From contig JAZRXC010000037.1 of NCBI GenBank assembly GCA_045600025.1, forward strand, positions 2,035 to 66,034: DNA of 64,000 nucleotides. The letters are read 5' to 3'. The position numbers were made by a program, and so were the translations under genes. This DNA is from Lachnospiraceae bacterium. Its GTDB lineage: Bacteria; Bacillota; Clostridia; Lachnospirales; Lachnospiraceae. The notes under the pieces were generated by a model. It did not search any database, was not told where the DNA came from, and saw only the letters and a list, made by a program, of their open reading frames with translations. Positions 1,076 to 44,994 of the stretch are shown here, piece after piece; position 1 is the stretch's first letter; each line of letters opens with the position of its first letter.

Positions 1076-2518
1076 TTAATAATTGAATTTCTCGTATTGA
1101 GACGTGTCCGGCTCATATATGGCAAGCTCGGTTGACTGTGCCACTAAACTGCGGATGTCTTTTAATTCTGATAATTCGCCGAGAGCATAATAGGAGACGG
1201 CAATGCTGCCCATAGCAGTAGCTTCTGTAGGTCCTGCTACCACTTTAACGCCGCAGGCATCTGCCGTTAACTGACACAGCAAATGTGACTGAATTCCTCC
1301 GCCAAGCATATTTATCTGACTGTATTTTCTGCCGGTCAGTTTTTGAAGTTCCTCAAAGGTTTGCTTATACTTAAGCGCAAGACTTTGATCTATACACCGT
1401 ACTACTTCGCCCCTTGTTTTCGGAATGTACTGTCCTGTTTTTTGACAGTATTCTCTGATTCTGTTCGGCATATCCCCCGGCGTTTCAAATGACGGATCAT
1501 CCACGTCGATAAAACATTTGAAGGGTTCGGATTTAAGAGCTTCATCCTCTAATATGCCAAAGTCAAGCTCCGTCTGTCCCTCGCGTTTCCACTGACGTAA
1601 AGACTCCTGCACAAGCCAAAGGCCTGTAATATTTTTTAAAAGTATAGCCTTATCCGCGAATCCGACCTCATTTGTGAAGTCCGCCTGTTCGGCAGCGGCA
1701 GTCAGCATCGGCTTATCGCTCTCCGTACCGAAGAGGCTCCAGGTGCCGCAGCTGATAAAAACAAAATCACCGTCAAGGCACGGCGTCGATACAACAACCG
1801 ATTCCGTATCATGTGAAGGACAGGCGATAACCGGTACTTTCTTACAGCCCAATTCTTCACATAACTCGTCGGTTAAGTAACCATATATACTGCCGGATTT
1901 AATAATGGGTGCAAAAATGCGCTTCGGCAGTCCTAACTTTTCTATGAGTTCAAAGTCCCAGTTTCTTGTCACCGGATCAAACAAATTACTTGTTGATGCG
2001 ATTGATTCTTCCTCATGCATCTCGCCCGTAAGCATATAAGAAAATAAATCAGGCGTCATCAGAATCTTTTCGGTAATGTTCAGTATATCAGGCTCGTTAA
2101 GCTTAAGATACATCAGCTGATACAGAGTATTTATTCTTAAACACTGTGTGCCCGTTCTTTCATACAATTCCTTTTTAGGAATTATTTGAAATACTTTTTC
2201 GAGCATAGCTTCTGTACGCTTGTCTCGATAATGCACAGGATTGGAGATAAGTTTTCCGCGCTTATCTATAAGACCGAAATCCACACCCCAGGTATCCACA
2301 CAGACAGCATCAAAACCACCGGCATTTGAAGCCTTAATAATGCTTTGTTTTACCTCGGAGAATAAACGCAGTATATCCCAGTAAAGTGTACCGTTTACCG
2401 AAACAGGATCGTTCGGAAAGCGGTGTATTACCTCCGCCGATATCTTGCCGTCTTTAATTTCCGAAATAATAGCTCTGCCGTTTGAAGCACCGAAGTCAAT
2501 TGCCAATATACGTTTCAT
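1076..2518 (-). CDS. FGGY-family ketose kinase, rhamnulokinase-like
   Basis: 480 aa. N-terminal ILAIDFGASNGR ATPase motif. The C-terminal NMLGGGIQSHLLCQLTADACGVKVVAGPTEATAMG closely mirrors the RhaB GGGxQNxLLNQLxADACG block. Confidence 0.75.
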   Translation of the reverse strand: MKRILAIDFGASNGRAIISEIKDGKISAEVIHRFPNDPVSVNGTLYWDILRLFSEVKQSIIKASNAGGFDAVCVDTWGVDFGLIDKRGKLISNPVHYRDKRTEAMLEKVFQIIPKKELYERTGTQCLRINTLYQLMYLKLNEPDILNITEKILMTPDLFSYMLTGEMHEEESIASTSNLFDPVTRNWDFELIEKLGLPKRIFAPIIKSGSIYGYLTDELCEELGCKKVPVIACPSHDTESVVVSTPCLDGDFVFISCGTWSLFGTESDKPMLTAAAEQADFTNEVGFADKAILLKNITGLWLVQESLRQWKREGQTELDFGILEDEALKSEPFKCFIDVDDPSFETPGDMPNRIREYCQKTGQYIPKTRGEVVRCIDQSLALKYKQTFEELQKLTGRKYSQINMLGGGIQSHLLCQLTADACGVKVVAGPTEATAMGSIAVSYYALGELSELKDIRSLVAQSTELAIYEPDTSQYEKFNY

Positions 2519-2527
2519 AGCGAGACC

Positions 2528-3214
2528 TTAATCTTTGTTATAGTGTTTATATCCCGGATGTTTACCTGTTACGTGATAATAGTTTTCTCTTAAATACAGG
2601 AGCTTGTCTATCTGCGATTTTTCTATTTCCTGCGCACCGCCAAGCAGATGTGCGGTAAGAGAAATCTTTGCAAATAGTTCCAGAGTTTCCATGCGGTAGT
2701 AAGCGGTAATGAGGTCGCAGCCTACTGTCAAAGCACCGTGGTTTTGTAATAAAAATACATCGTGCTCTTTAAGATAAGGCGCAATCGCGTCGGGCACCTC
2801 ATAGGTGCTCGGTGTGCCGTAAGGAGTAAGCGGAATTGAGCCTATCGCTATTACCGTTTCAATCATTGAATATTCGTCGAGGCTCTTTCCTGCAACAGCG
2901 TATCCGGTTGCGGTAGGCGGATGAGCATGCACTACAGCGCCTACGTCATCCCTTTCCTCATAACAACGCATATGCATCTTCATTTCACTTGAGGGCTTAT
3001 AATTTCCCTCTGCCGACACAACATTTAAATCCTTATCAACGATGACAAGCTTTTCGGGAGTGATAAAACTCTTGGATATTCCCGTAGGCGTTACAAGAAA
3101 ATTTCCGTCGGGCAGCTTTACACTGACGTTTCCATCATTTGCCGCAACCCAACCAAGCTGCCACATTTTATGGCACACATCACAGATTTGTTCTCTTATT
3201 TCTGAATATTCCAT
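2528..3214 (-). CDS. class II aldolase/adducin-family protein (ketose-1-phosphate aldolase-like)
   Basis: 228 aa. AANDGNVS and VVHAHPP metal-binding blocks of the FucA/RhaD/AraD family. Lies 9 nt downstream of the epimerase-side neighbour in the same operon. Confidence 0.8.
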   Translation of the reverse strand: MEYSEIREQICDVCHKMWQLGWVAANDGNVSVKLPDGNFLVTPTGISKSFITPEKLVIVDKDLNVVSAEGNYKPSSEMKMHMRCYEERDDVGAVVHAHPPTATGYAVAGKSLDEYSMIETVIAIGSIPLTPYGTPSTYEVPDAIAPYLKEHDVFLLQNHGALTVGCDLITAYYRMETLELFAKISLTAHLLGGAQEIEKSQIDKLLYLRENYYHVTGKHPGYKHYNKD

Positions 3215-3252
3215 TTTTCCCTCACATTACGCAAATGCGTACTTCCTGACAG

Positions 3253-4122
3253 TTATTCAAAAATACTTCTGAGGAATACTACTGAATCGGCCGCATCTTT
3301 ATCAAGAACCGAGTCGGGACAGCCGCGTGACAAATCGTGCCACATATGGATGTCTTTTCCGACCTGACCTTCCATGCGAACGAACGGCTCCATAACGAGC
3401 GCGCCCTGATAATTTACCTCTTTAAGGGCCTTCGCAATCTCTGCCCAGGGAATACGGCTCTCGGCTCTCGGAGGTCTGCGATTAGCCTCACCTACATGGA
3501 AATGACCGAGACGGGGACCTGCGGTGCGGATGGCATCCGCCATGGAATCCTCCTCGATATTCATGTGGAATGTATCAAGCATTACATATACATTCTTGCG
3601 ATCAACTGCGTCAACATAAGCACGGGTTTCCTCACTTGTATTCAGAAGGTATCCTTCAAAACGGTTCAGAGATTCCATGCCGAGGCTGATATCATAATCG
3701 GCAGCCATATCAGCAAGCGTACGCATATTTTTAATGCTACGCTCAAGAGCTGCAGGCTTATCAAAGGGCTTGGCAAAATCAACGGGCCAATATGAATACA
3801 GTCCGCCGCCGAGCCAGCGAATGCCGGCGATAGACATCTTCCTGAACATATCCTTGTATTTCTCAAAACCGGCTGCAACTACTGCGGGGTTATCGGAAGA
3901 AAGGTCATAAGCGGGCTCGGGACCGTAGCCGCCTGTCAGAATGATACCATTATCATCGGCAGTCTGTTTCAAAACCTTGAAATATTCGTCATTCTGCTTG
4001 GCAAAACCGCCGGTAGCGACCTCAAGGATATCAAAACCGAGATCCTTAACCTTCTTGATATAAGGGAGAAAATCTCCGCCCCATTCTTTTTCCCAGTACG
4101 CGTAATAAATACCAATTTGCAT
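3253..4122 (-). CDS. ketose 3-epimerase (D-psicose/D-tagatose 3-epimerase family, xylose-isomerase-like TIM barrel)
   Basis: 289 aa. The blocks IYYAYWEKEW, GGGLYSYWP, ESLNRFEGYLLNT, MLDTFHMNIEED, HFHVGEANRRPP and VMEPFV line up with characterised clostridial D-psicose 3-epimerases as I remember them. Confidence 0.8.
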   Translation of the reverse strand: MQIGIYYAYWEKEWGGDFLPYIKKVKDLGFDILEVATGGFAKQNDEYFKVLKQTADDNGIILTGGYGPEPAYDLSSDNPAVVAAGFEKYKDMFRKMSIAGIRWLGGGLYSYWPVDFAKPFDKPAALERSIKNMRTLADMAADYDISLGMESLNRFEGYLLNTSEETRAYVDAVDRKNVYVMLDTFHMNIEEDSMADAIRTAGPRLGHFHVGEANRRPPRAESRIPWAEIAKALKEVNYQGALVMEPFVRMEGQVGKDIHMWHDLSRGCPDSVLDKDAADSVVFLRSIFE

Positions 4123-6226: not shown

Positions 6227-8128
6227 GTGAAATATTACGTACACGAGAAACCGGCTCCCAGCAAAAATCCGGCTATTGAAAAGCATTACGATGTTGTAGT
6301 TGTAGGCGGAGGCATGAGCGGACTGTGCGCAGCAATCTCATCCGCGCGTCAGGGCGCAAAGACAGCTCTTATTCAGGACAGAAGCGTATACGGCGGAAAT
6401 GCAAGCTCGGAAAACAAGATGCACATCTCAGGCGCGTCCTGCCACTGGGGCAAGAAGAACGCCGCCGAGACCGGTATCCTTATGGAGCTTCAGCTCGAGA
6501 ACAAATACCTGAATGATTCATACAATTATTCAATCTGGGATGGTGTCCTGTGGGCCAAGGTTAAGGAAACCGAGAATCTTGATTCCTACATGAACACCAC
6601 TATGGATCTGGTATTATCCGACGGTCAGGAGATTAAGGCTATCGAGTGCTATCAGATGACAACAGAGATAAGATATCATTTCACAGCTGAGATATTCATC
6701 GACGCAACGGGCAACGGCTCACTCGCATACTTCGGCGGAAATGAATACAAAGAAGGAAGAGAAAGCACGGATGAGTATTCTGAAAAGGACGCACCGGCTG
6801 TGGCAGATGGCGAGACCATGGGCAACACGATTTATTTCGTAGCTCATGATACCGGACATCCCGTAAAATTCATCAAGCCCTCATGGGCATACGAATATCC
6901 GGACGAGACAAGATTCAAGCACAGATATCACGGCGACATCACCGTATATCATGACGCTGACGATGTAGTAGTATTGAAGCCCGGCGAAGATTATGAAGAC
7001 CATGCGGATCAGCTCGTTGAGAAATACGATGTAAAGAGCGGCTACTGGTGGATTGAGCTCGGCGGTGACTGGGATGATATCATCAAGCAGGCCGAGGATA
7101 TCAGATGGGAGCTGTACAAGGTTATCTACGGCGTATGGGATCACATCAAGAACCACGGCGACCACGGCGCAGAGAACTATGAGCTTGATTGGGTTGGCAA
7201 TCTGTCCGGTTGGAGAGAAAGCCGCCGTATCATGGGCAAATACGTATTAACCGAAAATGATATTCTTGCGAATAAGGTATTTGATGACGGTGTCGCATAT
7301 GGCGGATGGCCTATGGATGAGCATGTAGCAGGCGGTTTCGATGCAGTAGGCGGAATTCCTTCAAAGGTAAGATCCTTCAACGGATTCTATTCAATTCCTT
7401 ACGGATGCTACTGTGCAAGAGACATCAAGAACCTTATGCTCGCAGGAAGAGATATCAGCTGCAGTAAGCTGGCTATGGGGTCCACCCGTGTTATGGGTAC
7501 CTGCGCTATAGGCGGACAGGCAGCGGGAACAGCAGCGGCTATGGCAGCACTTAAGGGACTTAATCCCGAAGAGTTCGGCAAGCAGTACATTCAGGAACTG
7601 CGTCAGCAGCTTCTTAAGGATGACTGCTACATCATGGGTCTTTCTAACCAGGATGAAAAAGACTATGCAAGATTCGCAACTGTATCGGCTACATCTGAGA
7701 AGAGCGGCTGCGAAGCGGCAAAGGTTATTAACGGATATTCAAGAAATATCGACGACGATATTAATGAATGGATATCTGACGGCATAGCACCCGGCGGTGA
7801 AGCTCTTACCCTTAAGCTTGATGCTTGCCACGATGTAAAACAAGTTAGAATTACATTTGACCCTGATCTGTCAGAGGAGAGATGTATCTCCGTATCTAAG
7901 GCATTCCTTGAAAAGGAGCCTCTCGGCCCGGCTAAGGACCTTGTTAGGGATTATACTATCGCACTTCTTAAGGATGGCAGCGAAGTTGCTTCTAAGGAAA
8001 TCAAGGGCAACTATCAGAGACTTTGCATATCCGATTTTGACGGCGTGCCTGCGGATGAGGTTAAGATTACCATTAGCGCAACCAACGGCGCTAAGGACGC
8101 AAAGGTATTTGAGGTAAGAGTATACTGA
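6227..8128 (+). CDS. FAD-dependent oxidoreductase, long form with C-terminal beta-sandwich domain; paralog 2 of 7
   Basis: 633 aa with a GTG start 8 nt after AAGGAG. Motifs VVVVGGGMSGLCAAI, YGGNAS, IDATGNG, WRESRRIMGKY, IPYGC, LAGRDIS, TRVMGTCAIGGQAAGTAA. Also ends in FEVRVY. Confidence 0.8.
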   Translation: MKYYVHEKPAPSKNPAIEKHYDVVVVGGGMSGLCAAISSARQGAKTALIQDRSVYGGNASSENKMHISGASCHWGKKNAAETGILMELQLENKYLNDSYNYSIWDGVLWAKVKETENLDSYMNTTMDLVLSDGQEIKAIECYQMTTEIRYHFTAEIFIDATGNGSLAYFGGNEYKEGRESTDEYSEKDAPAVADGETMGNTIYFVAHDTGHPVKFIKPSWAYEYPDETRFKHRYHGDITVYHDADDVVVLKPGEDYEDHADQLVEKYDVKSGYWWIELGGDWDDIIKQAEDIRWELYKVIYGVWDHIKNHGDHGAENYELDWVGNLSGWRESRRIMGKYVLTENDILANKVFDDGVAYGGWPMDEHVAGGFDAVGGIPSKVRSFNGFYSIPYGCYCARDIKNLMLAGRDISCSKLAMGSTRVMGTCAIGGQAAGTAAAMAALKGLNPEEFGKQYIQELRQQLLKDDCYIMGLSNQDEKDYARFATVSATSEKSGCEAAKVINGYSRNIDDDINEWISDGIAPGGEALTLKLDACHDVKQVRITFDPDLSEERCISVSKAFLEKEPLGPAKDLVRDYTIALLKDGSEVASKEIKGNYQRLCISDFDGVPADEVKITISATNGAKDAKVFEVRVY

Positions 8129-11784: not shown

Positions 11785-11879
11785 AACATACCCCTCAAAA
11801 TCAGGTTTTATAAAATTGTACCATCAACTTTTATAAAAGTAAATAACAAAAATTTTTTGTATGTTGAACCTAAAAAATA

Positions 11880-11908
11880 TTGACTTTATTTAACAATTGC
11901 ACTAACAT
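11880..11908 (+). promoter_or_regulatory. candidate sigma-A promoter of the importer/oxidoreductase operon
   Basis: TTGACT (11880-11885), 17-nt spacer, TAACAT (11903-11908), about 90 nt upstream of the 11999 start. Confidence 0.4.
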
Positions 11909-11998
11909 ATGAATTAATTATTAGTCAAAGATTAGATTGCGAAAAAATCGGCTCAACGAAAGTCGTTTTTGATAAAACAATAGAAAGGAGGCACTGCA

Positions 11999-12934
11999 TT
12001 GCCGGCAACTAAGAAACACAAGTTTTTAGTATATTTTAAGCAGCACTGGGCATTATATGCAATGCTTATCCCGGGACTTGTTTTCCTGTTTGCTTATAAG
12101 CTGCTCCCTCTGTGGGGTCTGCAGATAGCATTCAAGGATTATAAGGTATTTAATGCAGCTGATCCGTGGGCGGCAATAACCGCCAGCGATTGGATTGGTT
12201 TTGACCATTTCAAGAGGCTGTTCGCAAGTTCACAGTTCATAAAGGTTCTTGTCAATACACTTGAGATTAACTTTATGAAGATACTGTGGCTGTTCCCGAT
12301 CCCCATTATTTTTGCAATTCTCCTTAATGAGATTCGTCTTAAGTTATACAAGAAGATTGCACAGACCATGATTTATGTTCCTTATTTCTTCTCATGGATC
12401 CTGGTATTCGGTGTATTCTATTCACTTCTCGGATCTTTCGGAGTTATCAATTCGTTCCTGTCGGAGATCGGTCTTGATAAGATTAACTTCTTTACAGACC
12501 AGAGCGTATTCCGAGGAGTGCTGGTATTTACGGAAGGATGGAAGGAGGTCGGATACAATACCGTCATCTATCTGGGTGCAATTACCGGTATTGATCTGAC
12601 ACTGTATGAGGCGGCAAGAGTAGACGGAGCTAACAAGTTCGCTCAGATTTGGTACATCACGCTGCCCGGATTGCTTCCTACTATAGTACTGATGCTCATT
12701 ATGAAGATCGGATACATTCTGACAACAGGTTTTGAGCAGATTTTGGTATTCTACAGCCCGTCGGTTTACGACGTTGCGGATATCATCGAGACGTACGTAT
12801 ATCGTATAGGTTTAGGAAAGGCAGACTTCTCGCTGGCGACTGCGCTGGGACTGTTTAACGCTGTGGTGGCATTTATCCTGATTGTAGGTGCAAATGCTAT
12901 CAGTAAGAAGACAGTTCAGAGAAGTATCTGGTAA
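11999..12934 (+). CDS. CUT1 sugar ABC transporter permease (LplB/MalF-like)
   Basis: 311 aa with a TTG start 7 nt after AGGAGG. Multi-TM. EAA loop YEAARVDGANKFAQIWYITLP. Confidence 0.8.
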   Translation: MPATKKHKFLVYFKQHWALYAMLIPGLVFLFAYKLLPLWGLQIAFKDYKVFNAADPWAAITASDWIGFDHFKRLFASSQFIKVLVNTLEINFMKILWLFPIPIIFAILLNEIRLKLYKKIAQTMIYVPYFFSWILVFGVFYSLLGSFGVINSFLSEIGLDKINFFTDQSVFRGVLVFTEGWKEVGYNTVIYLGAITGIDLTLYEAARVDGANKFAQIWYITLPGLLPTIVLMLIMKIGYILTTGFEQILVFYSPSVYDVADIIETYVYRIGLGKADFSLATALGLFNAVVAFILIVGANAISKKTVQRSIW

Positions 12935-42210: not shown

Positions 42211-43323
42211 ATGGACGTAATTGAGATTAGAGATCTGCATAAAGCCTTCGGAGATTATAAGATTTATACCGGACTTAACATGACCGTTAAGGAAGGCGAG
42301 ATAGTAGTTATCATCGGTGGTTCAGGCTGCGGCAAGAGTGTACTTCTTCGTTCAATTGAGATGCTTGAGAAGCCTGATTCCGGTCAGATTTTTATAGATG
42401 GGCAGGAGATTACCGCTGAGGGCGCTGATATAGGTAAGATCCGTCGCTCTATGGGTATGGTATATCAGGACTTTGCACTGTTCTCCAATATGAACGTTAT
42501 GGAGAATCTTTGCATAGCTCCTATGAAGCTGCTTGGCATGTCTCAGGAAGATGCCGAGAAAAAAGCTCTTGAGCTTCTTGCTACAGTCGGTCTTGCCGAT
42601 AAGGCTAACCGCCGCGTACAGGCACTTTCAGGTGGACAGAAACAGCGTATTGCCATCTGCCGTTCTATGATGATGGATCCGAAGATTATCCTCTTCGATG
42701 AGCCTACCAGTGCGCTTGATCCTACCATGGTCGGTGAAGTTCTCGCAACCATCAGGCTCCTTTCACGCAGAGGACTTACCATGATGATTGTTACTCATGA
42801 GATGAACTTTGCAAGACAGATTGCGGACAGGATTGTGTTCCTTGCTGATGGCGGTATCTATGAGCAGGGGACTCCGGAAGAGATATTCGAGAATCCTCAG
42901 CGTGAGAAGACTATCGATTTCATTCGCAAGATGAAGCATACTGCTTGTGAGATTACGAGTAAAGAGTTTGACCTTATCGAGATTCATGGTGTTATTCAGC
43001 AATTTGCGATGCGTTACGGTCTTTCTAACAATGAGAGTTATCGTCTGCAGATATGTACTGAAGAGATGATATATGCAATGCTTTCGAGATTGCCTGATGA
43101 TAATGTTAACATTAAGATTAACGTTGGGTTCTCTGAAGATGACAGATCTTGCGAGCTTACATTTATCAGTCCGGGTCCTGAATTTGATCCGGCGAAGATT
43201 CTTGAGGCTTCTGACGATGATGCCTTCGGTGATTCTCTTGGACTTATGATTATTCTTAAGAAGTCCAAGGAGTACGAACACAGTTATACCGATGGGGTTA
43301 ATACCATCAAGCTTAAACTTTAA
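42211..43323 (+). CDS. amino-acid ABC transporter ATP-binding protein with ~125-aa C-terminal extra domain
   Basis: 370 aa. Walker A GGSGCGKS, signature LSGGQKQR, Walker B ILFDEPTSALD, H-loop VTHEM. The ABC domain ends near residue 245 and is followed by an additional domain. Confidence 0.8.
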   Translation: MDVIEIRDLHKAFGDYKIYTGLNMTVKEGEIVVIIGGSGCGKSVLLRSIEMLEKPDSGQIFIDGQEITAEGADIGKIRRSMGMVYQDFALFSNMNVMENLCIAPMKLLGMSQEDAEKKALELLATVGLADKANRRVQALSGGQKQRIAICRSMMMDPKIILFDEPTSALDPTMVGEVLATIRLLSRRGLTMMIVTHEMNFARQIADRIVFLADGGIYEQGTPEEIFENPQREKTIDFIRKMKHTACEITSKEFDLIEIHGVIQQFAMRYGLSNNESYRLQICTEEMIYAMLSRLPDDNVNIKINVGFSEDDRSCELTFISPGPEFDPAKILEASDDDAFGDSLGLMIILKKSKEYEHSYTDGVNTIKLKL

Positions 43324-43337
43324 TAATTGATTTTTTG

Positions 43338-43371
43338 CAGGCTGGCGGGTACATCGCCGGCCTGTTTTTTT
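43338..43371 (+). terminator. rho-independent terminator after the amino-acid ABC operon
   Basis: CAGGCTGGCG-GGTACAT-CGCCGGCCTG followed by TTTTTTT. Confidence 0.8.
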
Positions 43372-43376
43372 ACATC

Positions 43377-43556
43377 ATTATCGCGGCACATTAGCAACGG
43401 CAAACGTGTCGCGATGCCTACCTCGTCTTCGCCGCCTATAACGCCACTCGCTCCGACTCCCACCGAAACGGGAGCTCTCCGCTCGGGCGGCTAGGCTCGA
43501 CTCGCCTACGGCCCTGCTCCAATGTTTGCCTTATGCTAAATGTGCCGCGTAATAAT
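43377..43556. repeat. GC-rich ~180-nt element closed by long imperfect terminal inverted repeats (candidate structured RNA or MITE-like element)
   Basis: Left arm CGCGGCACATTAGCAACGGCAAAC (43382-43405) pairs with GTTTGCCTTATGCTAAATGTGCCGCG (43524-43549) for about 22 bp. A central hairpin CTCCC-ACCGAAAC-GGGAG (43457-43474) sits exactly at the midpoint. Confidence 0.55.
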
Positions 43557-43587
43557 TTCAATTATGTGCCGCATAATAATATCAATT
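43538..43587 (+). repeat. tandem ~25-nt direct repeat carrying ATGTGCCGC(G/A)TAATAAT
   Basis: AAATGTGCCGCGTAATAATTTCAATT followed by ATGTGCCGCATAATAATATCAATT, immediately upstream of the -35 element at 43593. Confidence 0.6.
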
Positions 43588-43592
43588 AGTGC

Positions 43593-43621
43593 TTGCAATT
43601 TTTTCATATAGTTAGTACAAT
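43593..43621 (+). promoter_or_regulatory. candidate sigma-A promoter of the orphan MsmX-like ATPase gene
   Basis: TTGCAA, 17-nt spacer, TACAAT. It would give a ~175-nt leader before the ATG at 43804. Confidence 0.5.
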
Positions 43622-43803
43622 TAGTTTATATTAATATGCCCGTGATAGATCCACCAAGTCTACACGAGGGATAAAAGAAAAGGAGGAAAAATATCCGCAG
43701 GACTCGCGGTGCGGCAGCGTGGAGATGTGCCGTAATGCATTAGCCAAGCTCGGCTTTTGCGAGGTTGCAGATGAGGAGTCACTGCAATCAGAGTTAAGGA
43801 AAC

Positions 43804-44994
43804 ATGGCAGAAGTAAAATTAGTGAATCTGAAGAAGATCTACCCTCACGAATCTGCGAAAGACAAGAAGAAGAGAAGAAAGGCAAGAGGAATTGATCCCG
43901 CTGCTGAAAGAAAAGTAAATCTTCAGATTACAGAGGAAGGCGTAGTTGCAGTTCAGGAGTTCAACCTTGACATTGCAGACAAGGAATTCATCGTTCTTGT
44001 AGGCCCTTCAGGATGCGGAAAGTCCACCACACTTCGTATGGTAGCAGGACTTGAAGAGATTTCATCAGGTGAGCTGTATATCGACGGCAAGCTTGTAAAT
44101 GATGTTCCGCCCAAGGACAGAGACATTGCAATGGTATTCCAGAACTATGCTCTTTATCCTCACATGACAGTTTATGAAAATATGGCTTTCTCACTTAAGC
44201 TGAAGAAGGTTCCGAAGGACGAGATCGATAAGAAGGTACGTGAGGCTGCTGATATCCTCGATATCACTCAGTATCTCGATCGTAAGCCGAAGGCTCTGTC
44301 AGGCGGTCAGCGCCAGAGAGTTGCTATCGGACGTGCTATCGTTCGTAACCCCAAGATTCTTCTTATGGATGAGCCTCTTTCCAACCTGGACGCTAAGCTG
44401 CGTAACCAGATGAGAGCTGAGATTATCAAGCTTCGTGAGAAGATTAATACTACATTCGTATATGTTACACATGACCAGGTAGAGGCTATGACTCTCGGTG
44501 ACAGAATCGTTATCATGAAGGACGGCTTCATCCAGCAGATCGGCACTCCTCAGGAAGTATTTGCACATCCTTACAACCTGTTCGTAGCAGGATTCATCGG
44601 TTCACCTCAGATGAACTTCTTCGATGGCAAGCTTGAGAAGAAGGAAGACGGATACTATGTATCTACCTTCGGCGCATCATTCAAGCTTCCGGAAGACAAG
44701 CAGGAAGCCCTTAAGAATAAGGACAACATTCCTTCAGATGTAGTTCTCGGTGTAAGACCTGTTCATATCGTTCTTGCTGATGACGGTATCCCTGCTAAGC
44801 TTGATGTATCTGAGCTTATGGGCAGCGAGCTTCATCTGCATGTTAACACTGAAGGCAAGGACATCGTTATCGTAGTTCCTACTGCTGATATCGACGTTAA
44901 TGCAATTCACGGAACACATAAGGAAATCAAGTACTCATTCAGACCTGAACTTATCCATGTATTTGATAAGGAAACAGAGAAGAATCTGTTCTGA
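43804..44994 (+). CDS. orphan CUT1-type sugar ABC transporter ATPase (MsmX/MsmK/UgpC-like)
   Basis: 396 aa. Walker [31 protein letters not shown] and a C-terminal MalK-like regulatory domain. A lysine-rich insertion sits near the N-terminus. No adjacent permease or binding protein. Confidence 0.8.

Follow-up and report, generated by a model that had tools for sequence, protein, structure and literature searches.

Correia elements of Neisseria and RUP of Streptococcus pneumoniae are TA-duplicating miniature inverted-repeat mobile elements (MITEs), which are mobilised by IS630-type transposases. Prokaryotic MITEs are shorter than 500 bp, have terminal inverted repeats (TIRs) of 4-30 bp, and are typically AT-rich; QMITE2 of Coxiella burnetii combines TIRs of 23-29 bp with a core of 113-145 bp (PMC10969869). 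The REP units of enterobacterial BIMEs, REP mosaics, and REPINs (PMC2817692, PMC3116915) form 20-40-nt hairpins, which are present in more than 100 copies and are tied to a RAYT (Y1) transposase. For a treatment of Correia elements and RUP, we refer the reader to PMC3184786 and PMC3049150.

The segment compared with these systems here is located in a window of 64,000 nucleotides from a gut bacterium of the Lachnospiraceae, the assembly of which is a fragmented MAG of 1.36 Mb (69 contigs, 44% GC). A preliminary description of the window had left two readings for positions 43377-43556, a structured non-coding RNA of the 6S type or a MITE. We conclude that the segment is probably one stand-alone copy of a dispersed repeat that is non-coding, species-specific, and built like a MITE. 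This repeat, referred to as repeat A, is a new and apparently orphan representative of MITE/BIME-type intergenic repeats of small size.

Repeat A has a length of about 170 nt (168-180 nt) and is composed of imperfect TIRs of about 30 bp (…GCGGCACATTWGCAACGGCAAAC / GTTTGCCTTATGCTAAATGTGCCGC…) flanking an unrelated GC-rich core of about 110 nt. In the window copy, for which no strand is assigned, the left TIR (ATTAT-CGCGGCACATTAGCAACGGCAAAC) occupies positions 43377-43405, the non-palindromic core with 66% GC (66.1%) positions 43406-43523, and the right TIR (GTTTGCCTTATGCTAAATGTGCCGCG-TAATAAT) positions 43524-43556. Aligned with three indels, both TIRs are identical in 31 of 40 columns, including the ATTAT outside GCGG. 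Among the copies, homology begins at or near GCGGCACAT on the left and reaches its right limit at ...ATGTGCCGC. All blocks given in the preliminary description were recovered at their positions. In the closing stem, CGCGGCACAT (43382-43391) pairs with ATGTGCCGCG (43540-43549), and the GC content of the segment (43382-43549) amounts to 62.5% versus 41% and 22% in the two flanking spacers, the whole copy lying in a 480-nt intergenic gap. The lack of a convincing ORF or ribosome-binding site likewise holds: the only internal ATG ORF comprises 26 aa (43414-43494) and has no ribosome-binding site, and longer ORFs overlapping repeat A start or stop in locus-specific flanks. A scan of the window copy revealed neither a promoter nor a terminator within the unit.

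The copy was also correctly placed right after the terminator of the upstream amino-acid-type ABC operon (SBP_bac_3, BPD_transp_1, and ABC_tran ORFs). This intrinsic terminator (43337..43372, plus strand) consists of a stem at 43337-43365 with 12 pairs, 8 of them GC, followed by TTTTTTT, and repeat A begins beyond it, 54 nt past the ABC ATPase stop codon. The ATPase itself (42211-43323) carries a C-terminal extension, in which residues 255-368 give a sub-threshold match to HATPase_c_2 (PF13581; 25.0 bits versus a cut-off of 27.4). On the other side, 37-44 nt separate the right end of repeat A from the downstream -35 hexamer TTGCAA (43593) of a promoter-like site TTGCAA-17-TACAAT (43593..43621, plus strand). 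The leader downstream of this site is a full-length malK-I RNA motif (RF03069; 43631..43809, plus strand; 119.2 bits versus a gathering score of 60.3, E 1.7e-23), which precedes an orphan MalK/MsmX-like ABC ATPase gene (43804-44994; ABC_tran, OB_MalK, and TOBE_2). Neither a permease nor a binding protein is adjacent to this gene.

Folded as RNA, the 180 nt reach -73.3 kcal/mol on the plus strand (z -5.77), with 0 of 200 dinucleotide shuffles as good; relative to such shuffles, the minus strand (z -5.16) and folding with DNA parameters (z -4.16) also give strong excesses. The interior (43406-43523, 118 nt) folds with -34.5 kcal/mol versus a shuffle mean of -34.05 (z -0.14, 88 of 200 shuffles as good), and the self-complementarity of the core, 62 identical columns versus 59.6 +/- 4.3 in shuffles, shows no excess. 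The inner 6-bp helix, the internal loops, and the apical hairpin are thus what GC-rich composition yields by chance. The entire folding excess is due to the terminal arms, and the real feature is a pair of imperfect inverted repeats of about 30 nt. From the rod architecture proposed earlier, only the closing stem stands, being beyond chance. The helix GCCGCC (43431-43436) / GGCGGC (43486-43491) and the hairpin CTCCC (43457-43461) / GGGAG (43470-43474) are found at their positions, the hairpin centred on the midpoint, but the interior around the helix folds no better than shuffles, the hairpin is not above chance, and the two internal loops are at chance level as well. Covariation in the interior is uninformative, since the core is nearly invariant: the eight copies compared are 97% identical, with few variable sites in the core, and 48 of 49 predicted pairs are without a two-sided change.

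A BLAST search of the 180 nt against the host assembly revealed approximately nine near-full copies on nine contigs and an additional five to six fragments or chimeras. Many dispersed near-identical copies were the outcome that the preliminary description had named for a MITE, and together with inverted ends of about 30 bp, where about 25 bp had been proposed, they support this reading. The near-full copies are located on contigs C37 (the window), C40, C43, C57, C29 (two), C38, C20/C45, and C16. Those of C20 and C45 represent a single locus divided between two contig ends, and the copy on C16 is truncated by the end of its contig. Fragments and chimeras were found on C52, C30, C25, and C51 (two) and at C43:11538. 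Pairwise identities range from 95.1 to 98.8% with a mean of 97.6% in 163 common columns. Every copy is intergenic, lies between tandem or divergent genes, and may take either orientation relative to its neighbours, and in every two-ended copy the inverted ends agree in 25-31 of the roughly 40 columns of their alignment. In the window and on C38, the copy stands by itself, is sharply bounded, and is accompanied by no other module. A TA dinucleotide is present 0-3 nt outside both ends in seven of the nine two-ended copies, the offset being variable and the other two copies having no TA; a target-site duplication is not demonstrable from these offsets, and the flanks of many copies are not independent because they have a context of further repeat modules (S and B, see below) in common.

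Within all data searched, repeat A appears to be private to its host species. BLAST searches did not find it in 40 relatives, including seven species of the same genus, or in 400 genomes, one per genus, from the very large family to which the host belongs, and blastn searches of plasmids and phages did not find it either. An exact 23-nt core word had no match in GTDB representatives, JGI metagenome contigs, and IMG/VR, a looser end pattern produced only chance matches inside coding sequence in the GTDB representatives and JGI metagenomes, and a 21-nt end pattern had no match in IMG/VR. When up to three mismatches were allowed, the 23-nt end matched once in the 400 family genomes versus twice for the reversed control, and no autonomous element with repeat A ends was detected among these genomes or by the pattern scans of GTDB representatives, JGI metagenomes, and IMG/VR. 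Exact-protein look-ups for both genes flanking the window copy returned no record elsewhere, and a close orthologue of the flanking ATPase was not found in the same-genus genomes, where the best candidate has 46-53% identity.

With a length below 500 bp, no transposase gene or coding capacity, TIRs, and dispersed similar copies, repeat A has several of the properties by which MITEs are recognised; no autonomous IS that carries its ends and could mobilise it in trans was found in the sequences searched. Its closest counterpart in architecture is QMITE2, which it is not expected to resemble in sequence but with which it shares the TIR length (about 25-30 bp), the size of a core unrelated to the TIRs (about 110-145 nt), a non-coding, multi-copy, and intergenic nature, and a single long stem-loop that the transcript or single strand is predicted to form via the TIRs. 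Unlike QMITE2, it is GC-rich (62.5%) rather than AT-rich, is confined to one species, has no demonstrable direct repeats at its ends, and lacks a known related IS. Correia elements and RUP resemble it in size (100-170 nt), inverted ends, AT-rich intergenic sites, and a TA beside both ends in most cases; the differences are the absence of DDE_3 from the assembly, the variable TA offset, and the lack of any sequence relation. Integron attC sites have RYYYAAC / GTTRRRY core sites and occur in promoterless cassette arrays beside an integrase. An attC site was rejected for repeat A, as by inspection its arms (…GCAACGGCAAAC / GTTTGCC…) misfit this consensus and its copies are single and lie between ordinary operons.

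A partner transposase was sought in the assembly itself. Neither BLAST nor a scan for inverted pairs of the end word revealed a longer element bounded by repeat A ends. Of the transposase families searched for, DDE_3 (IS630-type), rve, DDE_Tnp_1, and Y1_Tnp (PF01797, RAYT-type) are not represented, and Transposase_mut (IS256-type) is represented once. This sole intact IS256-family element (C44, approximately 2088-3588) has a 420-aa open frame with Transposase_mut and the inverted ends GAGAGTGTGAAAC.../GAGAGTGTAGAAA....; it was rejected as a partner, its ends (GAGAGTGT...) being unrelated to repeat A. As the assembly is a fragmented MAG, absence of a partner IS from it is not proof.

On the MITE account, the copies would have arisen in a recent transposition burst, which is suggested by their high identity together with the restriction to one species. 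We infer mobilisation in trans by an end-binding transposase, which would have recognised both ends and which may since have been lost or may be encoded on DNA that was not binned into the 69 contigs. The copies would later have decayed and recombined with a second repeat, repeat B, at short microhomologies, giving rise to mosaics at other loci, and the window copy would have landed in the AT-rich spacer between the operon terminator and the promoter of the malK-I leader. The long stem would act at the DNA level, where hairpins formed in replication could lead to arm-concerted changes and to duplications spanning the junctions.

Repeat B is likewise private, GC-rich, and about 190 nt long with its own diverged inverted ends. 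Most copies of repeat A are joined to it, and it almost always adjoins a copy of repeat A. It maps to C51:9421-9610 (plus strand), C51:11229-11418 (minus strand), C29:4128-4319, and C40:26902-27070, is also present on C25, C43, and C52, and was not found in the 40 relatives. Two further modules are S, which is the left end of repeat B (TATAACCGCGCCGCCTCC...GCGCATCTTATAT), and D (CATGAGCCAAATGGCTTTAG). Composites with S, A, D, and reverse-B in this order are located at C29:3869-4339, C40:26700-27100, and C43:614-1094. The junctions of chimeras coincide with microhomologies, namely GCCGCCT (C52), GCCT (C51), GTGYCGC (C25), and CGCCT (C30).

A further class of changes concerns the arms. Both are altered in concert in the C38 copy (GCGTCACAT / ATGTGACGC) and on C52 (GCGGCGCAT / ATGCGCCG), and on C30 the right arm has come to complement the left-arm type exactly. 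In addition, the right junction of the window copy carries a 24-nt tandem duplication (units 43540-43563 and 43564-43587, plus strand, 22 of 24 positions identical), the unit of which comprises the last 10 nt of repeat A and 14 nt of flank, so that the second unit leaves a solo end ATGTGCCGCATAATAAT. The C38 copy has a 27-nt tandem duplication across the junction at its left end. Palindrome mutagenesis is an established process, on which we base the reading that the concerted changes and junction duplications would be products of hairpins in single-stranded DNA, by quasi-palindrome correction and slippage. These changes do not call for an RNA function, and they keep a BIME-like, recombination-driven origin alive as an alternative.

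This alternative, which we regard as unlikely, sees A, B, S, and D as modules of a mosaic intergenic palindromic family of the host, spread and reshuffled by recombination or template switching and not by a dedicated transposase; the modules could be retained for structural reasons, for instance to bind proteins or to manage supercoiling and replication. Repeat A resembles BIMEs, REP mosaics, and REPINs in being GC-rich palindromic intergenic DNA, in its modular mosaics, which are more reminiscent of BIMEs than of a clean transposon, and in a pairing that is kept via concerted changes. The recurrence of the S, A, D, reverse-B composite at three loci, the chimera junctions on microhomologies, the concerted changes in the ends of repeat A, and the lack of a matching transposase among those looked for all fit such an origin. 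However, the copies of the window and of C38 stand alone with sharp ends, and a host function under conservation is hard to reconcile with the low copy number (about nine) and with the absence of the family from all other genomes that were searched. The arms, moreover, are 110 nt apart, unlike those of REP hairpins, and the RAYT-type Y1 transposase is absent from the assembly.

One locus of the mosaic group, C51:9382-11224, consists of the left 40 nt of repeat A with B, cargo genes, and the right 30 nt of repeat A with an inverted B. The cargo comprises two genes for small secreted proteins plus an ORF of 70 aa, and the whole looks like a cargo-bearing composite. The 3' end of RNase P RNA lies immediately upstream of it, and a run of ATGCGACA / TGTCGCAT words lies ahead of the right end of the composite.

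A multi-copy gene for a structured non-coding RNA, i.e., a rod-like RNA of about 170 nt with a long closing stem, 6S-like or otherwise, is highly doubtful, even though the stem is very stable on either strand and the terminal pairing is preserved through two-sided changes in two copies. A search of both strands of 42800-44300 against Rfam found no family for repeat A even at E<=10 and no match to RF00013, and the genuine 6S RNA gene is located elsewhere (G000:C40:14869-15052, minus strand; RF00013, 66.5 bits). Repeat A has the size of about 180 nt and the long closing stem in common with 6S RNA, but it is multi-copy, has no covariance-model match, and its interior, including the central bubble, is not structured above chance. 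Furthermore, the unit has no internal promoter or terminator, its copies have no fixed orientation and often separate divergent genes, it is limited to one species among the genomes searched, and the window copy is placed between a terminator and the next promoter. The 6S-type reading of the preliminary description is therefore rejected.

There is similarly little probability that A, B, S, and D were copied by non-classical means, either hairpin-templated replication or repair or the PD-(D/E)XK 'transposase' family (PDDEXK_2, PF12784), in which case the arm-concerted changes would reflect a structure-dependent mechanism. No other transposase-like gene family of the assembly is multi-copy; PDDEXK_2 has at least seven diverged paralogues of 73-92% identity (C3:182-1225; C19:5831-6850 and 6940-7841; C35:451-1488; C40:7177-8050; others on C53, C48, and C23). 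Upstream of each paralogue lies a conserved module of about 190 nt containing the palindrome TGTGACGATTTGTCACA, and the word GCGTCACATTT of this module matches the end of the repeat A copy in C38. We do not accept this link as evidence, as only the C20/C45 copy abuts the module, the word in common falls within the module at 10 nt from its boundary, and the gene unit has no inverted end; it is a lead.

The PDDEXK_2 upstream module also precedes an HTH plus nucleotidyltransferase gene (C40), a MuF_C-domain gene (C13), and others (C45, C7). Tandem arrays with a unit of about 100 nt and the hairpin GTAAATCCAAATCG...GGCAAATGGATTTAC were observed at C2:3009-3293, C28:9319-9583 and 11840-12053, C35:3027-3249, and C40:10130-10349; they amount to about 15 units genome-wide, some directly upstream of the PDDEXK_2 module. 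No Rfam family matched these arrays, the module, repeat B, or the composites.

That three ATGTGCCGC words (43383-91, inverted; 43540-48; 43564-72) form a local regulatory array of operator sites for a regulator of the MalK-like ATPase, with the GC-rich segment being incidental, has next to no probability: three exact words within 190 nt versus 0.56 expected in the whole window, all of its occurrences being here and 20-50 nt upstream of the -35 hexamer, would suit operators, but two of them are the ends of a repeat present at eight other unrelated loci, the third belongs to the 24-nt duplication of the right junction, and the look-alike word ATGTGCCGTAAT in the leader (43725-43736) falls in a conserved stretch of the malK-I consensus.

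For the preferred reading, a solo copy of a MITE-like repeat, we saw no sign of local activity at this locus, and the window copy is most likely without a function of its own. The main value of the finding is a correction: a GC-rich rod near a riboswitch-like leader is selfish repeat DNA and not a new regulatory RNA, and hence it should not be pursued as a 6S-like gene. The small gut genome of 1.36 Mb harbours several families of GC-rich palindromic repeats that are young and private and for which no matching transposase is detectable, and a concerted change of the two arms, probably driven by hairpins, is clear among the copies of repeat A. Repeats of this type break metagenome assemblies; three copies lie at contig ends. 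They could serve as strain markers for the host species.
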